From Minisyncoccota bacterium (lineage in GTDB: Bacteria > Patescibacteriota > Minisyncoccia > Phycocordibacterales > UBA9973), in NCBI GenBank assembly GCA_031291825.1, contig JARLIG010000008.1, forward strand, positions 5,674-69,673: 64,000 nucleotides of DNA. Reading direction: 5' to 3'. The notes beneath the pieces are model-generated. The model did no database searches. It saw only the letters and a list, made by a program, of their open reading frames with translations, and was not told the origin of the DNA. A program made the translations under genes and the position numbers. Shown in pieces: positions 11,927 to 61,515 of the stretch. Every line of letters starts with the position of its first letter. Position 1 is the first letter of the stretch.

Positions 11927-11954
11927 AACTATATTATATCAAACTTTTCTGATG

Positions 11955-12025
11955 CTGGGAGACTTGGACTCGAACCAAGATAATATCCTCCAGAGGGATA
12001 TGTCCTACCATTAGACGATCTCCCA
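11955..12025 (-). tRNA. tRNA-Gln (anticodon CUG)
   Basis: Minus-strand cloverleaf: acceptor TGGGAGA/TCTCCCA with the U1:A72 pair typical of bacterial tRNA-Gln, anticodon arm TATCC-CTCTGGA-GGATA, T-arm CTTGG-TTCGAGT-CCAAG. CCA is not encoded. Confidence 0.85.
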
Positions 12026-15423: not shown

Positions 15424-15669
15424 ATGTACCACCTCTATATTTTAAAGTGTGCGGATAAAAGTTTATATACTGGCATCACTACTGATTTAAAACGCCGAGT
15501 GGGGGAACACAATAGCTCAAAATTGGGCGCGAGGTATACAAAGTCTAGGCGACCAGTCCAGTTGGTTTATTCTAAGAAATTTAAAAACAGGTCTTTGGCA
15601 TCCATTGCCGAAGCGAAAATTAAAAAATTATCGAGGGCAGAAAAATTAAAACTAATCAAAAGTAAGTAA
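15424..15669 (+). CDS. GIY-YIG nuclease family protein (small UPF0213-type)
   Basis: LYILKCADKSLYTGITTDLKRRVGEHN shows the GIY-YIG motifs. Length is 81 aa. Confidence 0.8.
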   Translation: MYHLYILKCADKSLYTGITTDLKRRVGEHNSSKLGARYTKSRRPVQLVYSKKFKNRSLASIAEAKIKKLSRAEKLKLIKSK

Positions 15670-15771
15670 TTTCCAATTCTTGCTTTTTATAAAATATTGT
15701 GTTATTCCGTAAAGGAACATCAGTACCCCGTAGCCGCAGAGAGTGGACGGGTAAAGAAAGGAAAATAAGTC

Positions 15772-16227
15772 ATGAATCTGTTGCTTGAAGCGCAGCAAAG
15801 TGTCACACCAGAGGAGGTTGCCAAGGTGGACCAATCGTTGCCAGCTGCTGACAAAGAGAACTCCGCGGATTTCATCGGAACTCTGCCGGCTGAATTGCAG
15901 AATCTTTGGACCTTCATGCAGAGGATGGTTGCAGAGATAGAAGCCGATACGGAAATCCTTGAGCGTAAAGCTACCTCTGTATTTTTCTCATCGGACTACG
16001 AAGAGAACCTGCCAGCCATCTTTCGTAAGAAGGTAGTCCTGACAAGAAAACTCAATTGCGCGAAGAAGGTCTTCTGGGCGGAAGTGGAAGCCCAGTTTGG
16101 TCTGAAGGAAGGCCAACAGGGTCTCGCTTTGCGGAAGGGGTGGGCGGTGGTGCATTATCTATACCCGCTCTGCGTCGTCGAACTTCGCCCCGCCAAGAGG
16201 GGTATCTTCGCTCGTCTTTTCAACTGA
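15772..16227 (+). CDS. Hypothetical protein encoded in a GC-rich island
   Basis: 151 aa with no recognised domain. Local G+C is far above background; one 60-bp stretch is ~58%. A hairpin terminator follows at 16270-16318. Confidence 0.5.
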   Translation: MNLLLEAQQSVTPEEVAKVDQSLPAADKENSADFIGTLPAELQNLWTFMQRMVAEIEADTEILERKATSVFFSSDYEENLPAIFRKKVVLTRKLNCAKKVFWAEVEAQFGLKEGQQGLALRKGWAVVHYLYPLCVVELRPAKRGIFARLFN

Positions 16228-16269
16228 CGAGAGTCGAACAACCAAACAATAAGAAAGGAGCCATCTATC

Positions 16270-16318
16270 GACCGCTTGTGAGAGGACCGCAAATCCTGCA
16301 AGCGGTCTTCTTATTTTT
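16270..16318 (+). terminator. Rho-independent terminator
   Basis: Stem GACCGCTTG...CAAGCGGTC followed by TTCTTATTTTT. Confidence 0.6.
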
Positions 16319-16436
16319 GGTGTAGTTTTTTTTAAATTACTAAACGTGTGCTTCTTTGTCTTTCGTAAATATAAAAGTTCCGTCTTTGTTGCTTGTGAAT
16401 TCAAATCGGTTAGTGTGTCTAATAAATAAAAAGAGT

Positions 16437-16470
16437 GAGGCCACGGTTTTTGGAAAACCGTGGCCTTTTG
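16437..16470 (-). terminator. Rho-independent terminator for the minus-strand island gene
   Basis: Perfect stem GGCCACGGTTTT/AAAACCGTGGCC. On the minus strand it is followed by a T-rich run. Confidence 0.65.
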
Positions 16471-16487
16471 AAGATGGTGCATGCGCG

Positions 16488-17006
16488 TTAGTTTGGGTGA
16501 ATTAGATATCGCTCTTCACGCATAGCCCTGCTGGCTCTTTGGCAGGAGTACGTCCATACAGGGAAGTGTTGGGAAACATCCCACAACATGGCGGATTTTG
16601 TTTCCTCCTTTGAGTAAGCGCTTGCCCTAAGGAAAAAACCTTTTCCGATTTGGTCGTACCACCTGATATTGTGGCGTCTAGTGTTTCTGACTTGGTCGCG
16701 AAAAAAGCCGACCAGCAAGAGTGTTTGAGAACCAGCAATTTCCAATATTTCTGGGTCTGGTGCTCCATAGAAATTCTCTGTGAGTGTTGGGATAACAAAG
16801 TTATCCAAAATCTCACAAAGGCTAACTGCTGGTCCCATAGTGTCCTCTTCAAAACGAGAGGTTTGCGCGTAATGCGCTAGGATGCTCGCAATGTAGAGTG
16901 TTTCCTCTCGACCCATACCTACTGGTGCGTTGTTTCGCAAGTGGTTGTAGAAGAACTGCATTGTTTGAGCTGAACCTACCGCCAGAAGTTCTCTAAGGTC
17001 ACTCAT
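16488..17006 (-). CDS. Hypothetical protein encoded in a GC-rich island
   Basis: The track ORF runs to 17084. The likely start is the ATG at 17004-17006, preceded by GGAGG. The 173-aa product begins MSDLRELLAVG and has no recognised domain. Confidence 0.5.
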   Translation of the reverse strand: MSDLRELLAVGSAQTMQFFYNHLRNNAPVGMGREETLYIASILAHYAQTSRFEEDTMGPAVSLCEILDNFVIPTLTENFYGAPDPEILEIAGSQTLLLVGFFRDQVRNTRRHNIRWYDQIGKGFFLRASAYSKEETKSAMLWDVSQHFPVWTYSCQRASRAMREERYLIHPN

Positions 17007-17160
17007 GCTTTGCCTCCAATGGATTTTGTTGCTTTCAAAATTAGTATAGATTATTGAGCTAAATATGCAAATAAAGTTACTCAATGGCTAGACTAGTTTT
17101 AATTTAAACAAAGTTGTATAGTTTAAGAGAAGTAACGCTCGTTATTTGAAAGGGGTTGGA

Positions 17161-17476
17161 TATGCCAGAGCCAGAGTCAAATAAGCAAGAGCTGCAAAAA
17201 CACTCCATGCCCGTGAAGTGCGTGACATGTGGGAAAGAGGAAGGGTTCCTTTACGTTGACACTATGGGCAATGCAGCAGGAGATATTTTTTTATACCTGC
17301 GTTGTTCAAAATGCGACACAAAATTGGTCATTCCACACAACTCTGTCAAGACGGGTATCTACTGTACCGGTCGAGATATTCAGATGGCTTCGAAGCAGAA
17401 GATGCTAACTGCTAAGGTGACCGATGACTTCGCCACATTCATGCTTGCCATCGGCATGCCCAACTCCCAACAATAA
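17161..17476 (+). CDS. Small zinc-ribbon protein (CxxC...CxxC) in a GC-rich island
   Basis: CVTCGKEEG ... CSKCDTKL. The SD-like AAAGGGG sits upstream of the ATG at 17161. Confidence 0.5.
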
Positions 17477-17501
17477 ACAACCCCAGTTTACAGAGAGCCT
17501 C

Positions 17502-17538
17502 GAGGGAGCAAGATTCGTTCTGCTCCCTCACTTTTTTG
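17502..17538 (+). terminator. Rho-independent terminator
   Basis: Stem GAGGGAGCAAG...CTGCTCCCTC followed by ACTTTTTTG. Confidence 0.7.
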
Positions 17539-17590
17539 TCTAGTAAGAAATATGGTATGCTTAGAACGCTTTTACAGTTAGTAAAAACAG

Positions 17591-49394: not shown

Positions 49395-49590
49395 AAATCC
49401 TGCCAGATAGAATCCAGAGCAGAATTTGGGGTCCTTCAAATAAAGAGATAAATGAAGGCAAAGAGACTTTTGTCCTGCTCGGGAATACATGAAACGATTG
49501 GTATTCGGACTTGTCTTCGACCTAGGTCGAAGCTTACCGTAGCGGCACTGTACTGGAATCAAACCAGTTTCCCCAATAGTTTCTTTTCGT
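49395..49590 (-). ncRNA. Candidate cobalamin riboswitch in the leader of the DUF4430 operon
   Basis: The minus strand reads UAUUGGGGAAACUGGUUUGAUUCCAGUACAGUGCCGCUACGGUAAGC...(hairpin)...GAAGACAAGUCCGAAUACCAAUCG. This matches the B12-element core GGGAA-n3-GGUG-nAAnUCC...CnG-nCCCGCCACUGU and the 3' AAGUCAGGAUACC block. An expression-platform hairpin and U8 tract lie at about 49391-49420. Confidence 0.4.
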
Positions 49591-49632
49591 TTTCAAATGA
49601 ACTCACTCTAGTATATACTTACCCTATATCTT

Positions 49633-58525: not shown

Positions 58526-59623
58526 ATGAAAAAAATACTATTGTTTTGTGCAATGGTTTTTTCGTTTCTATTTTTACAAACTAATCAGGCGCAAGCTTCG
58601 TATCATTTCTCAAATTATAAAGGCCGGCCACCGATACATGTTTTGGGTGGAGCGACAAAAACTCCAAGCGGAATCACTCCCTCGCAAATAAAAAATTTCT
58701 ATAATCTTCCGACTTCTGGCGGACACGGCACGATTGTAATCATCGGTGCTTATGATGATTCGGCAATTGAAAAAGATTTAAATATTTTTAGTACACAATT
58801 TAATTTACCAAGTTGCACGACTGCTAATGGATGTTTTACTAAACATAAAATGTCTGCGACGGTGAAAAGCAATAGTGGTTGGGCGATGGAAACTAGTCTG
58901 GATATTGAATGGGCACATGCGATTGCTCCAAATGCAAAAATTATGCTAGTGGAAGCTGTTACTCCTTCCGGCGCGAATTTATTAAAGGCGGTGGATTATG
59001 CGGCCAGTGTAAAAGATGCAAGTGCAATTTCTATGAGTTGGGGTGGAGCGGAATTTCCCGAAGAAACAAATCTTGATTCACATTTCCAAAGTGTTTCTGG
59101 CGCGCCGTTTTTCGCTTCGTCGGGAGACAACGGCGCGGGCGCATCTTGGCCGGCAGCTTCGCCCGATGTTATCGGTGTCGGTGGGACGACAATAGCTGTA
59201 AAAAGTGATGGAACATTTTCCAAAGAAACAGCTTGGACGGGAAGTGGAGGTGGGGTCAGTGCTTATGAAAAAGAACCAACTTTTCAAAATGGATATTCAA
59301 TACCGAAGGCGGGAGGTATGCGCGCGGTTCCTGATGTTGCTTATGATGCGAATCCCACTTCTGGTTTTCCGATTGAGCGAGGTGGAAAATGGTATGTCGT
59401 GGGTGGAACATCAGCTGGCGCGCCGCAATGGGCGGCCATTGCGGCGCTAGGAAGTGGAATAAATTTAAATAATCTTTACGGAGATAAAAATGGAGATAAC
59501 AACGGAAAATATTTTCGTGATATTACAGCCGGTTCCAACGGCGATTGCGGATATTATTGTTCAGCACGAAAACATTATGACTATATTACGGGTTTAGGCA
59601 GTCCATTGACAGACAGCTTCTAG
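58526..59623 (+). CDS. S53 (sedolisin)-like or S8-like serine peptidase
   Basis: Pro-domain-like ITPSQIKNFYNLP. GHGTIVIIGAYDDSAIEKDLNIFSTQFNLPSCTTANGCF. Catalytic Ser context GGTSAGAPQWAAIAAL. Confidence 0.75.
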   Translation: MKKILLFCAMVFSFLFLQTNQAQASYHFSNYKGRPPIHVLGGATKTPSGITPSQIKNFYNLPTSGGHGTIVIIGAYDDSAIEKDLNIFSTQFNLPSCTTANGCFTKHKMSATVKSNSGWAMETSLDIEWAHAIAPNAKIMLVEAVTPSGANLLKAVDYAASVKDASAISMSWGGAEFPEETNLDSHFQSVSGAPFFASSGDNGAGASWPAASPDVIGVGGTTIAVKSDGTFSKETAWTGSGGGVSAYEKEPTFQNGYSIPKAGGMRAVPDVAYDANPTSGFPIERGGKWYVVGGTSAGAPQWAAIAALGSGINLNNLYGDKNGDNNGKYFRDITAGSNGDCGYYCSARKHYDYITGLGSPLTDSF

Positions 59624-59678
59624 GTGTTGCATTTTGCTAGGTTTTTGGTAAGGTTTGGGTGAGAGGAGTACCAATCAA

Positions 59679-59879
59679 ATGAACATCCCTGGGAGTGTGG
59701 ACTATCGCAGGTTTGAGAGTGAGGGGGTCTGTGTGTTTACAACTTCTTCGGGTTTTACTGGAGAAGGAGCCTCCTTAAACGCAGCTGTAAAAGCTGCACA
59801 AGCAAAAGAAAAGGAAGGAGGGTTACTCAGTGAGCAAGTTGCAAACAGAGAAGTCATTTGCGGAAGCATCCTTGCCTGA
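59679..59879 (+). CDS. Small hypothetical protein (66 aa) in a GC-rich islet
   Basis: The ATG is preceded by GAGAGGAG. It overlaps the next small ORF by about 50 nt in a different frame. Confidence 0.3.
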   Translation: MNIPGSVDYRRFESEGVCVFTTSSGFTGEGASLNAAVKAAQAKEKEGGLLSEQVANREVICGSILA

Positions 59880-60072
59880 AGAGCAACCTGCTTTGAGGCC
59901 GAAGTGCTCGCTCCCAATAGTTATTTCCATTTTTGGAGACGAGGGTGACGGTGCAGTCAGTAGTGCCATGCAACGCAGAAAAAACTTCAGAGCTCTTCTC
60001 GTAGCATTCACACAACATTTCGATGGGGTTACTGTCGAAGAACTTGCCGAAGAAAAAGGGGAAAAGTTTTAA
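59830..60072 (+). CDS. Small hypothetical protein (80 aa) in a GC-rich islet
   Basis: A GTG start with the perfect SD site AAGGAGG 7 nt upstream. A hairpin lies at 60086-60118 downstream. Confidence 0.35.
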   Translation: MSKLQTEKSFAEASLPEEQPALRPKCSLPIVISIFGDEGDGAVSSAMQRRKNFRALLVAFTQHFDGVTVEELAEEKGEKF

Positions 60073-60190
60073 ATCATTTGTGTGCCGGGGTAGCGAATTG
60101 AAAAATCGCCCCCGGCATTCGCTTGTCTAATAAATTTATTTTGATTTTATATATGAACTCTGTCATAGTTTAAGAGAAGGGAGACGTACC

Positions 60191-60406
60191 ATGAACAACA
60201 AAAAGATTGACCCGCCGTTACCGCCTGTCAATTTCGAGTTGGTGAAAGTTGACGGCGTGCAGATGTTTGAAGTATGCCTCCCGATTTACGGGGAGGTCAG
60301 GGCTGTTGGGGCTAACTACTCAGAAGCTCTCGCGAGTGCTTCTTTCTTGAGAGAGATGGCGAAAAGTCTTATCGAAGAACTTTGCGGTCCAGGACCGCAC
60401 AACTAA
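60191..60406 (+). CDS. Small hypothetical protein (71 aa) in a GC-rich islet
   Basis: SD site GGGAG 7 nt upstream of the ATG, with a perfect 16-bp hairpin immediately after the stop. Confidence 0.45.
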   Translation: MNNKKIDPPLPPVNFELVKVDGVQMFEVCLPIYGEVRAVGANYSEALASASFLREMAKSLIEELCGPGPHN

Positions 60407-60410
60407 AACC

Positions 60411-60446
60411 ATGCCGACGAGAACTCAGAGAGTTCTCGTCGGCATA
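60411..60446 (+). terminator. Perfect 16-bp stem hairpin (terminator-like)
   Basis: ATGCCGACGAGAACTC aga GAGTTCTCGTCGGCAT. The downstream T-tract is weak. Confidence 0.5.
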
Positions 60447-60473
60447 AAACTATCTGCGTGCTAGAATAAACAG

Positions 60474-60728
60474 ATGAATTACATTCACGTCGCTGTCACT
60501 GCTGGCGCCAAAAAAGAATCTTTCTCGCCCCGTCGCTCGGGAGCGACAGGGGTAAAACCTTCAAAGGACCATTTTGAAATTTCTGTCAAAGAAAAAGCCG
60601 AGCGCAACATGGCAAACACTCGCGTGTTAGAAATCATCGCCGAACATTTTAATGTGCCGAAAAACAAAGTCCGCATAATCAACGGTCACAGACATCCCTC
60701 AAAACTTTTAGTGATAGAAGAAGATTAA
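60474..60728 (+). CDS. DUF167/YggU-family protein
   Basis: HVAVTAGAKKESFSP...HFEISVKEKAERNMANTRVLEIIAEHFNVPKNKVRIINGHRHPSKLLVI matches the YggU (UPF0235) pattern. Confidence 0.7.
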   Translation: MNYIHVAVTAGAKKESFSPRRSGATGVKPSKDHFEISVKEKAERNMANTRVLEIIAEHFNVPKNKVRIINGHRHPSKLLVIEED

Positions 60729-61012
60729 ACGACTGGAGGTTTCTTTATATTTCTGTATCTGATAACTAGGAAAATCGTGATGCTCATCGTCACCAAGCTC
60801 ACAAAATTTGAAATAGCCGAGCCGAAGTCATGATGCAGGGAAGTATCGACAACCACGATGCCGACAGCGACCCAAGTCAAAAGATACATAGATAGAGAAA
60901 TGTCGTTTGAACTTTTGGTTTTAATTAACTTATAGATTTGTGGAACTCCAGAAATTAAAAACAAAATTGCTGGTAAGTAAAAGATATACTGCATTTGAAT
61001 ACTATACATCAA
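60725..61012 (-). CDS. SemiSWEET / PQ-loop family membrane protein
   Basis: 95 aa, three TMs, and the PQ motif LISGVPQIYKLIKTKSSNDISLSMY. Confidence 0.6.
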   Translation of the reverse strand: MMYSIQMQYIFYLPAILFLISGVPQIYKLIKTKSSNDISLSMYLLTWVAVGIVVVDTSLHHDFGSAISNFVSLVTMSITIFLVIRYRNIKKPPVV

Positions 61013-61034
61013 ATTTTAAAAAATAAAAATTAAA

Positions 61035-61073
61035 GAGACGTCGGTATCCTGCGAAGCAGGAGCCCGACGTCTG
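61035..61073. repeat. GACGTC-containing 9-bp-stem palindrome with a nested hairpin, in a divergent intergenic region
   Basis: AGACGTCGG tatCCTGCgaaGCAGGag CCGACGTCT. It is related to the CCAGACGT repeat family. Confidence 0.5.
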
Positions 61074-61092
61074 GGCTGTGCTAAACTAGTGA

Positions 61093-61515
61093 GTGCTTAA
61101 AAATAAAATTTACAATTTTTTTGGCAGGCGATATGTCGTCAGACGCAGAGTGATACGCGTTGCAGGGCCAAAGAAAATTCTCGGCCATCTCACGGCAAAA
61201 GATTTTAAGGAAAATAAAAAGGCATCGTATGCGCTCATAACCGAGAGGATTGCATATTTCAATCAATCGGGAGAATTTCCGGTAGGGAAGATATTTATAA
61301 AAAATCAAAAGACCAGATGGGGCAGCTGCTCAGGAAAAAGAAATTTGAGTTTCAATTACAAACTCCTTTTTCTGCCGGAAAATCTAAGAGACTATATTAT
61401 CATTCACGAACTCTGCCATCTAAAGGAAATGAATCATTCCAAAAATTTCTGGTCCCTCGTCGCCCTCCAAGTGCCAAATTACAAATCCCTCCGCAGACAA
61501 ATCAAGCCTTACTAG
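61093..61515 (+). CDS. YgjP-like (DUF45) putative metal-dependent hydrolase / metallopeptidase
   Basis: YIIIHELCHLKEMNHSKNFWSLV matches the family motif HELcHl.e.nHs..FW. Confidence 0.75.
   Translation: MLKNKIYNFFGRRYVVRRRVIRVAGPKKILGHLTAKDFKENKKASYALITERIAYFNQSGEFPVGKIFIKNQKTRWGSCSGKRNLSFNYKLLFLPENLRDYIIIHELCHLKEMNHSKNFWSLVALQVPNYKSLRRQIKPY

Follow-up and report, generated by a model that had tools for sequence, protein, structure and literature searches.

The 64-kb window considered here (the whole stretch of 64,000 nucleotides from contig JARLIG010000008.1) belongs to a genome of Candidatus Pacebacteria (Patescibacteria; candidate phyla radiation, CPR) and carries, at positions 15700-17545, a GC-rich stretch with three small genes that we call orfA, orfB and orfC. 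We judge it fairly probable that three independent single-gene units, each acquired at a different time, make up this region as a mosaic at a small hotspot of gene turnover. The core unit would be orfB, acquired before the window genome split from the relatives L011, L167 and L169, then retained beside a GIY-YIG gene and partly ameliorated. Later, an insertion of ~758 bp, precisely at the junction of the GIY-YIG stop codon and a hairpin shared with the relatives, would have brought in orfA and its terminator; lacking a promoter, orfA would most likely be read from that of the GIY-YIG gene. The third unit, orfC, with its Shine-Dalgarno (SD) site and terminator, would have replaced, as a ~480-bp segment, the DNA between the orfB promoter and an ABC transporter gene. 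The composition of the region, the boundaries of the units, their presence or absence in relatives, the conservation of the orfB promoter and hairpin and the purifying selection on orfB are all directly observed. The features of the locus are as follows.

15424..15669, plus strand: GIY-YIG gene, 81 aa, catalytic domain only, native composition; left anchor of the locus
15663..16420, no strand: orfA segment, ~758 bp, with orfA, its SD site and its own terminator; missing in L011 and L167
15772..16227, plus strand: orfA, 151-aa orphan with the most foreign composition in the window; AAGGA 9-13 nt upstream
16278..16318, plus strand: orfA intrinsic terminator, 13-bp stem (hairpin 16278-16313) then TTATTTTT; fold -25.3 kcal/mol, z -3.4
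16438..16466, minus strand: orfB hairpin terminator, 13 bp, loop of 3, conserved; folds on both strands (minus z -6.4, plus z -4.7)
16488..17006, minus strand: orfB, 172 aa, soluble, all-alpha by prediction; uncharacterised family
17013..17071, minus strand: orfB SD site (GGAGG; CCTCC at 17013-17017 on the plus strand), ~40-nt leader and promoter, matched in a promoter scan
17077..17560, no strand: orfC segment, strain-specific, from the orfB promoter to the ABC transporter gene, with orfC and its terminator
17162..17476, plus strand: orfC, orphan of 104 aa and putative zinc ribbon, with CxxC at residues 20-23 and 48-51
17502..17537, plus strand: orfC intrinsic terminator, 9-bp GC-rich stem (hairpin 17502-17529) then TTTTTT; fold -22.3 kcal/mol, z -2.7

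Composition and codon usage

Over 15700-17545, G+C is 45.7% against a mean of 38.3% for the window, which ranks the stretch in the top 0.6% of windows of the same size. An earlier reading of the sequence alone (the sequence-only reading) had described an abrupt rise over a background of ~35%; the rise is real and the background was set too low. A second GC-rich stretch at about 58.9-60.7 kb (46.5%) means that the region is not unique at the 1.8-kb scale. At 51.8%, orfA has the highest G+C of any 456-bp stretch in the window.

Codon usage singles out the same genes. The three highest values in the window for G+C at third codon positions (GC3) belong to orfA (0.603), orfC (0.558; z 3.2) and orfB (0.471), against 0.331 (sd 0.071) in 58 native open reading frames (ORFs). 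Synonymous usage gives z-scores of -5.6 for orfA, -2.8 for orfB and -5.0 for orfC; AAG, GAG and CTG are raised in the three genes and TTA is nearly gone. The atypical composition and codon usage expected of an acquired genomic island are therefore found in all three, and the windowed G+C and codon-usage computation suggested as a check by the sequence-only reading returns outliers and not uniformity. Both composition and codon usage deviate more in orfA and orfC than in orfB. The former two are also rich in G-ending codons (G at third positions, G3, 0.34 and 0.28 vs 0.16; AAG 0.62 vs 0.21). The GC3 excess of orfB in the window is mostly a shift from T to C at NNY codons (C over T 0.65 vs 0.31), with G3 near background.

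Gene signals and the orfB transcription unit

The ORF list contains all three genes as they had been called from the sequence, and the proteins are identical to the hypothetical proteins P4L63_01235, P4L63_01240 and P4L63_01245 of a Candidatus Pacebacteria metagenome-assembled genome (MAG), on a contig of ~100 kb. The correction of the orfB start to 17006 holds, with 52 of 52 aligned homologues beginning at that residue. Each gene has an SD site (GGAGG for orfB, AAGGA for orfA, AAGG(GG) for orfC). Even with start codons picked generously, an SD-like match is absent in 32 of 56 native ORFs, the flanking GIY-YIG and ABC transporter genes among them, so the weaker SD usage previously ascribed to the native genes is roughly right.

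The three hairpins read as terminators all fold better than shuffled sequence, and each has the GC-rich stem, the T-run and the position after a stop codon of an intrinsic terminator. A simple terminator scanner picked out 16438-16466 alone of the three. An Rfam scan of the island gave no RNA family at gathering thresholds and two sub-threshold chance matches only.

The orfB gene is a self-contained unit of ~650 bp (about 16421-17072), comprising a sigma-70 promoter, a leader, the GGAGG site, the coding sequence and the hairpin. Its promoter, TTTGCATATTT-N11-CTATACT at 17043-17071 on the minus strand, provides -35 and -10 boxes at 17-nt spacing and occurs exactly once in the 64 kb. The motif recurs exactly in 8 further distinct orfB loci and with at most 2 mismatches in 5 more, always just upstream of the gene; the sequence past the -35 box is unrelated from locus to locus. 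At the other end, a GC-rich hairpin of 12-13 bp follows the orfB stop codon in 9 loci, with 99% of cells paired and compensatory changes in 6 of the 13 pairs. In relatives the same hairpin also terminates the convergent GIY-YIG gene. We know of no genetic tools for Pacebacteria, and the promoter together with its covarying terminator offers ready-made expression signals for this group.

Comparison with relatives at the locus

The relatives separate the three units from one another. In L011, where orfB shares 75% and the GIY-YIG protein 90% amino acid identity with the window, orfB and the same hairpin lie directly beside the convergent GIY-YIG gene, and window positions 15663-16420 are missing in blastn and in alignments. 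The DNA of L011 outside the orfB promoter and outside the GIY-YIG gene is unrelated to the window. In L167 the order is an ABC transporter orthologous to that of the window (87% amino acid identity over 270 residues), ~2.4 kb of small genes, orfB, the same hairpin and a GIY-YIG remnant, with neither orfA nor orfC. The distance from GIY-YIG to the orfB hairpin is 15-40 bp in both relatives. The slot of orfC is filled in L167 by those other small genes, at native G+C, and in L011 by unrelated DNA (tblastx and alignments). Thus, within a sample of two or three relatives, the orfA segment is absent from the same site in L011 and L167, the orfC segment is absent in L167 and L011, and orfB is present. 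The L167 copy of orfB (59% amino acid identity) has a GC3 of 0.57 against 0.2-0.35 in its flanks.

The window, L011, L167 and L169 form a clade with 97% bootstrap support by neighbor joining (NJ). With the synteny shared in L011 and L167, this clade suggests that orfB and the GIY-YIG gene are old residents of the locus; the retention of orfB at one locus in relatives likewise suggests an older, partly ameliorated acquisition. The sequence-only reading had named orthologues at the same site in relatives as grounds against acquisition, and these exist for orfB only. Its proposal of horizontal acquisition is borne out by the foreign composition of all three genes and by the absence of orfA and orfC from relatives, and is not supported as one joint insertion.

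The orfA and orfC segments

Among 5.8 billion protein clusters, orfA matches only itself, as does orfC (there annotated at 70 aa), and neither has a homologue in IMG/VR, phage genomes, plasmids or 170 fetched loci. The positional G+C of orfA (GC1/2/3 = 0.60/0.36/0.60) has a coding-like periodicity. A single-sequence AlphaFold2 (AF2) model of orfA forms a helical hairpin at a predicted local distance difference test score (pLDDT) of 56, and was dropped as a fold-search query for its low confidence. The 104-aa form of orfC starts at 17162 behind its SD-like site; the NCBI annotation takes an internal Met start, giving 70 aa with no SD site and the first CxxC lost. Against zinc-ribbon families orfC gives sub-threshold matches only (S27e, FdhE_C and DmmA), although both CxxC pairs are present. 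From these signals, orfA and orfC would be expressed proteins.

A promoter scan upstream of orfA found none, and no terminator lies between the GIY-YIG gene and orfA; read-through is therefore the simplest explanation, and orfA is probably co-transcribed with GIY-YIG. A repeat search around both inserted segments detected no target-site duplication or terminal inverted repeat, only short matches at chance level. Neither flanking repeats nor an integrase or transposase was found among the flanking genes scanned (13.7-19.3 kb), and the nearest tRNA gene (Gln, 11954-12025) is 3.4 kb away.

The short-read Logan contigs L007-L010, which come from four sequencing runs, match the window at 100% identity, and every one stops in the spacer that separates the orfA terminator from the orfB hairpin (16296-16492). 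These ends could reflect population heterogeneity at the junction or mere assembly difficulty at the hairpin.

orfB in other genomes

In species-representative genomes, orfB homologues come mostly from Acidobacteriota (Vicinamibacterales, Bryobacteraceae), with a minority in Patescibacteria (Nomura-, Sacchari- and Paceibacterota, Minisyncoccia) and a few in Acidimicrobiia. The G+C of orfB equals that of the genome in Acidobacteriota. At ~20 distinct low-GC loci it stands 10-20 points above the flanks, mostly as a gene-sized rise and in a few cases with GC-rich neighbours, and fully ameliorated copies occur in Patescibacteria (L028, L030, L060 and L113). Sequences from low-GC hosts were monophyletic in 0 of 100 NJ bootstraps, and two of them group with a Vicinamibacterales-type clade at 99%. 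This pattern fits a history in which high-GC donors passed the gene between phyla several times and the copies then ameliorated gradually. That the donors were of high-GC type, and the order of events at the locus, are what we infer here. By our rough estimate, about one substitution per synonymous site would bring a donor GC3 of at least 0.8 down to ~0.45-0.5. Between the window and L167 copies of orfB the synonymous divergence (dS) is saturated, and we dropped as unnecessary the idea that selection must keep the gene GC-rich despite this; a residual GC3 of ~0.5 is roughly what amelioration is expected to leave, so no special maintenance of G+C is needed.

In more than 150 loci orfB stands alone among unrelated neighbours. 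Neighbourhood clustering of 80+ orfB loci found no conserved partner, with GroEL downstream in one Vicinamibacterales subclade only; the second-largest neighbour "cluster" was rejected as an antisense shadow ORF in high-GC DNA. L013 holds orfB, a GIY-YIG gene and a P-loop helicase-like gene between homologues of the window genes at 60.5 and 61.2 kb, and its neighbouring genes reach 92% amino acid identity to the window. In L001, orfB adjoins a YceG homologue. Common almost exclusively to Acidobacteriota and Patescibacteria, orfB is a candidate marker of gene flow between the two.

Some copies lie in larger GC-rich blocks with small ORFs that lack homologues (L170 4044-7156 and L001 5400-7066; 52-58% in ~33-39% genomes), beside an IS3 transposase in L170 or a large serine recombinase in L001. 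The L170 block includes a 61-aa CxxC...CxxC ORF divergent from orfB, laid out as orfC and orfB are in the window and with no sequence similarity.

Weight of the mosaic reading and its alternatives

Several points weigh against the mosaic of separately acquired units. The comparison has two or three informative relatives, and its polarity, insertion here against deletion in the relatives, draws on two relatives for orfA and one for orfC. The related loci are for the most part metagenome contigs, with hosts assigned from G+C and neighbouring genes. The trees are by NJ only, and support for the GC-rich Patescibacteria clade is 60%; ORF calling in related loci was also crude. Neither of the inserted segments is bordered by a mobility gene, a target-site duplication or a terminal repeat. 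The status of orfA and orfC as genes would follow from ORF length, G+C periodicity and the SD and terminator signals, with no homologues to add to these. In addition, the T-to-C shift of orfB could stem from expression-linked codon bias.

The first alternative is that orfA, orfC or both are chance open frames in decaying foreign DNA of higher G+C and not genes. The missing homologues, the low-confidence orfA model and the differing NCBI annotation of orfC speak for it, as do similar clusters of small, GC-rich, homologue-less ORFs that flank orfB in L170 and L001 and lie at 59.65-60.4 kb of the window. It has to account, however, for 151 open codons in DNA of 52% G+C with the periodicity of orfA, for SD sites at the right spacing and clean terminators directly downstream of both genes, and for two correctly spaced CxxC pairs in orfC; a tblastx search in all frames found no remnant of a larger gene. 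We regard it as unlikely.

A second alternative centres on the GIY-YIG gene. It proposes a selfish-nuclease cassette, in which a small GIY-YIG nuclease (or an HNH-like one elsewhere) mobilises itself and the adjacent orfB unit, and break repair captures foreign DNA such as orfA. Free-standing homing endonucleases of the phage T4 seg/mob type are known to mobilise themselves with neighbouring DNA, and the likeness lies in a small intergenic GIY-YIG ORF with variable linked DNA at different loci in relatives. The gene is a clear member of its superfamily (Pfam PF01541, E 4e-17, 62.7 bits against a cutoff of 22.6, profile positions 1-77 of 78). Orthologues with 53-90% amino acid identity lie within 6 kb of orfB in L011, L013/L097, L092 and L001 as in the window, with the remnant in L167, six lineages in all, and the linked genes occur in three orientations and at least three genomic locations, with a single GIY-YIG copy in the 64-kb window. 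Further, L011 and the window share only the GIY-YIG and orfB pair between flanks that are unrelated on both sides, and orfA is inserted exactly at the GIY-YIG 3' end. In three other loci (L012 2831-3241, L093 2809-3219, L048 2868-3272), the 3' end of orfB is overlapped by an ORF that encodes 122-136 aa and carries an HNH-like motif (HH..P.S.GG...N...H..WH).

Unlike the nucleases of such cassettes, though, the 81-aa protein of the window is a bare catalytic domain with no DNA-binding domain, its composition is native (GC3 0.41, z 1.1), and its ratio of nonsynonymous to synonymous substitution rates (dN/dS) against L011 is 0.08, indicating strong purifying selection. No targeting domain, recognition site or empty-site polymorphism was seen, nor any cleavage site or sign of homing. 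The protein may resemble the widespread stand-alone GIY-YIG proteins of UPF0213/YhbQ type. No nuclease lies near the majority of orfB loci, Pfam does not match the HNH-like ORF, and shared ancestry within the 97% clade accounts for part of the linkage. In L167 (3861-3987) the convergent GIY-YIG gene is an internally deleted pseudogene (MYHLYIIRCADKTLYTG|KAEAKIKKLTRS*) beside an intact orfB, so the nuclease gene is decaying in one relative while orfB persists. We consider mobilisation by the nuclease rather improbable. We give a similarly low probability to a broader proposal, in which the ~650-bp orfB unit is an autonomous single-gene cassette of a type not yet described. Acidobacteriota and Patescibacteria would exchange this cassette, possibly via host-episymbiont contacts, and it would relocate within Patescibacteria with small GIY-YIG or HNH-like nucleases, whose breaks would make its flanks traps for orphans such as orfA and orfC.

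Third, the three genes might be native and highly expressed, with G+C, SD sites and terminators all reflecting expression-linked codon bias. The consensus-like, conserved promoter, the GGAGG site and the strong terminator of orfB are in keeping with this, and so is its C-over-T preference at NNY codons with G3 near background. The G-ending enrichment of orfA and orfC is nevertheless atypical of translational selection in AT-rich genomes, both genes are absent from relatives and have no homologues, and in other low-GC genomes the orfB homologues are raised not only in C at third positions but also in G3 and in G at NNR codons. Genes for ribosomal proteins or EF-Tu, which could act as a codon reference, are absent from the window. 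We find this reading very unlikely.

The sequence-only reading had favoured a single acquired 1.8-kb island whose three genes form a module for addiction or defence, or one derived from phage. The view weighed here also takes in toxin-antitoxin systems and gives the zinc-ribbon protein a regulatory part. Adjacency, the foreign composition of all three genes, their divergent and convergent layout with an SD site and a terminator each, and the divergent CxxC...CxxC ORF upstream of orfB in the ~3-kb GC-rich block of L170, with its nearby IS3 transposase, could be cited for it. Lack of co-occurrence largely refutes this module, which we hold to be highly improbable: orfB has no orfA or orfC partner in more than 150 loci and is syntenic in relatives that lack both, homologues of orfA and orfC appear nowhere in the searched data, other orfB loci included, and the L170 ORF is unlike orfC in sequence (the one faint orfC match, E 0.065, is a different 98-aa ORF ~4 kb downstream). 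Searches against phage and defence databases, which that reading had recommended, gave no significant PADLOC or PHROG match for the three proteins. In PADLOC-DB, orfA, orfB, orfC and the upstream 112-aa protein have no match at E<=1, which places none of them in a known defence system; in PHROG nothing falls under E 0.03, and IMG/VR, INPHARED and BFVD gave no match, so that nothing marks the genes as phage or prophage. Viral contigs, phage genomes and plasmids likewise hold no match for any of the three.

The mosaic can also be set beside known systems. As in type II toxin-antitoxin and small defence modules, small adjacent genes of foreign composition include one putative zinc ribbon; unlike in those modules, the partners never co-occur elsewhere, PADLOC matches are lacking and orfB is solitary. 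Nor do the genes form an operon: orfB converges on orfA and diverges from orfC, and all three are monocistronic, each closed by a terminator of its own. Horizontal gene transfer and genomic islands are reported to be common in Patescibacteria, with GIY-YIG domain proteins listed among the transferred genes (PMC12455944). Like the islets described there, the region deviates in G+C and codon usage, carries orphan or hypothetical genes and varies in presence from one related genome to another (PMC12455944). It differs in having no integrase, tRNA-end insertion or repeat boundary, and in combining an older syntenic orfB with two younger single-gene segments. A further comparison is with integrons, whose gene cassettes consist of a promoterless ORF and a hairpin-type site and are associated with an IntI integrase and attI. 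Like such a cassette, orfA is promoterless, is followed by a hairpin and is inserted downstream of a transcribed gene; unlike one, it is single, and its hairpin has the T-run of an ordinary intrinsic terminator. No IntI or attI was seen near the island, the whole window not having been scanned for them. Gene turnover at a small hotspot is nothing unusual, and the region is of this ordinary kind, though some of its details are of interest. Alone it carries limited weight, as an instance of how an island-like patch in a streamlined CPR genome can be layered, separate single-gene acquisitions and not a functional module.

The orfB protein family

The sequence-only reading recognised no family for any of the three proteins. 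This holds for curated libraries (Pfam, NCBIfam, PHROGs and PADLOC give nothing at a meaningful level for orfA, orfB or orfC) and fails for orfB, for which one search gave 132 homologues at E<=0.001 and a second gave 448 representative clusters (50% identity). The members are almost all stand-alone proteins of 160-180 aa. In alignment A1, residues F18, F19, Y38, E89, G100, F101, F102 and G121 are invariant, and the motifs LAHYAQTS and LLLxGFFRDQ...RHN..WYD are strongly conserved. The AF2 model is confident, with 9 helices at pLDDT 82.5; the protein has a pI of 5.95 and no transmembrane segment. The gene is under purifying selection, with dN/dS of 0.19 between the window and L011 and 0.11 between L001 and L170.

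A Foldseek search of the orfB model against PDB and BFVD gave no match at E<0.5, and the profile met only designed helical repeats among PDB sequences, which we dismissed as compositional. Of 53 family members, none has a Pfam match, and two isolated PADLOC matches (E 0.009 and 0.022) are all that was found there. The family is thus sizeable, at ~450 clusters at 50% identity, with no Pfam entry and no structural neighbour in PDB. Two candidates were set aside: P0123, the top profile-search match, is a 2038-aa protein of ~33 tandem copies of a ~60-aa unit that looks like a translated tandem DNA repeat and no relative of orfB, and a second 172-aa ORF in L001 was rejected as an orfB paralogue. 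Two Acidobacteriota MAGs each carry two orfB paralogues on separate contigs (L058/L061 and L080/L082), so the family can be multi-copy in Acidobacteriota.

Other features of the window

The second GC-rich patch (59655-60406, in the context of 58526-61515) has 46-47% G+C and holds only small ORFs of 74, 80 and 71 aa. No ORF of at least 100 aa occurs in 59623-61093, and the ORF at 60191-60406 has a GC3 of 0.58. The patch adjoins a YggU-like/YgjP-like gene pair, and it is between the members of that pair that the relative L013 carries orfB, the GIY-YIG gene and the helicase. Elsewhere in the window, a cobalamin riboswitch at 49479-49621 on the minus strand scores over the Rfam gathering threshold (40 bits) in this small CPR genome.

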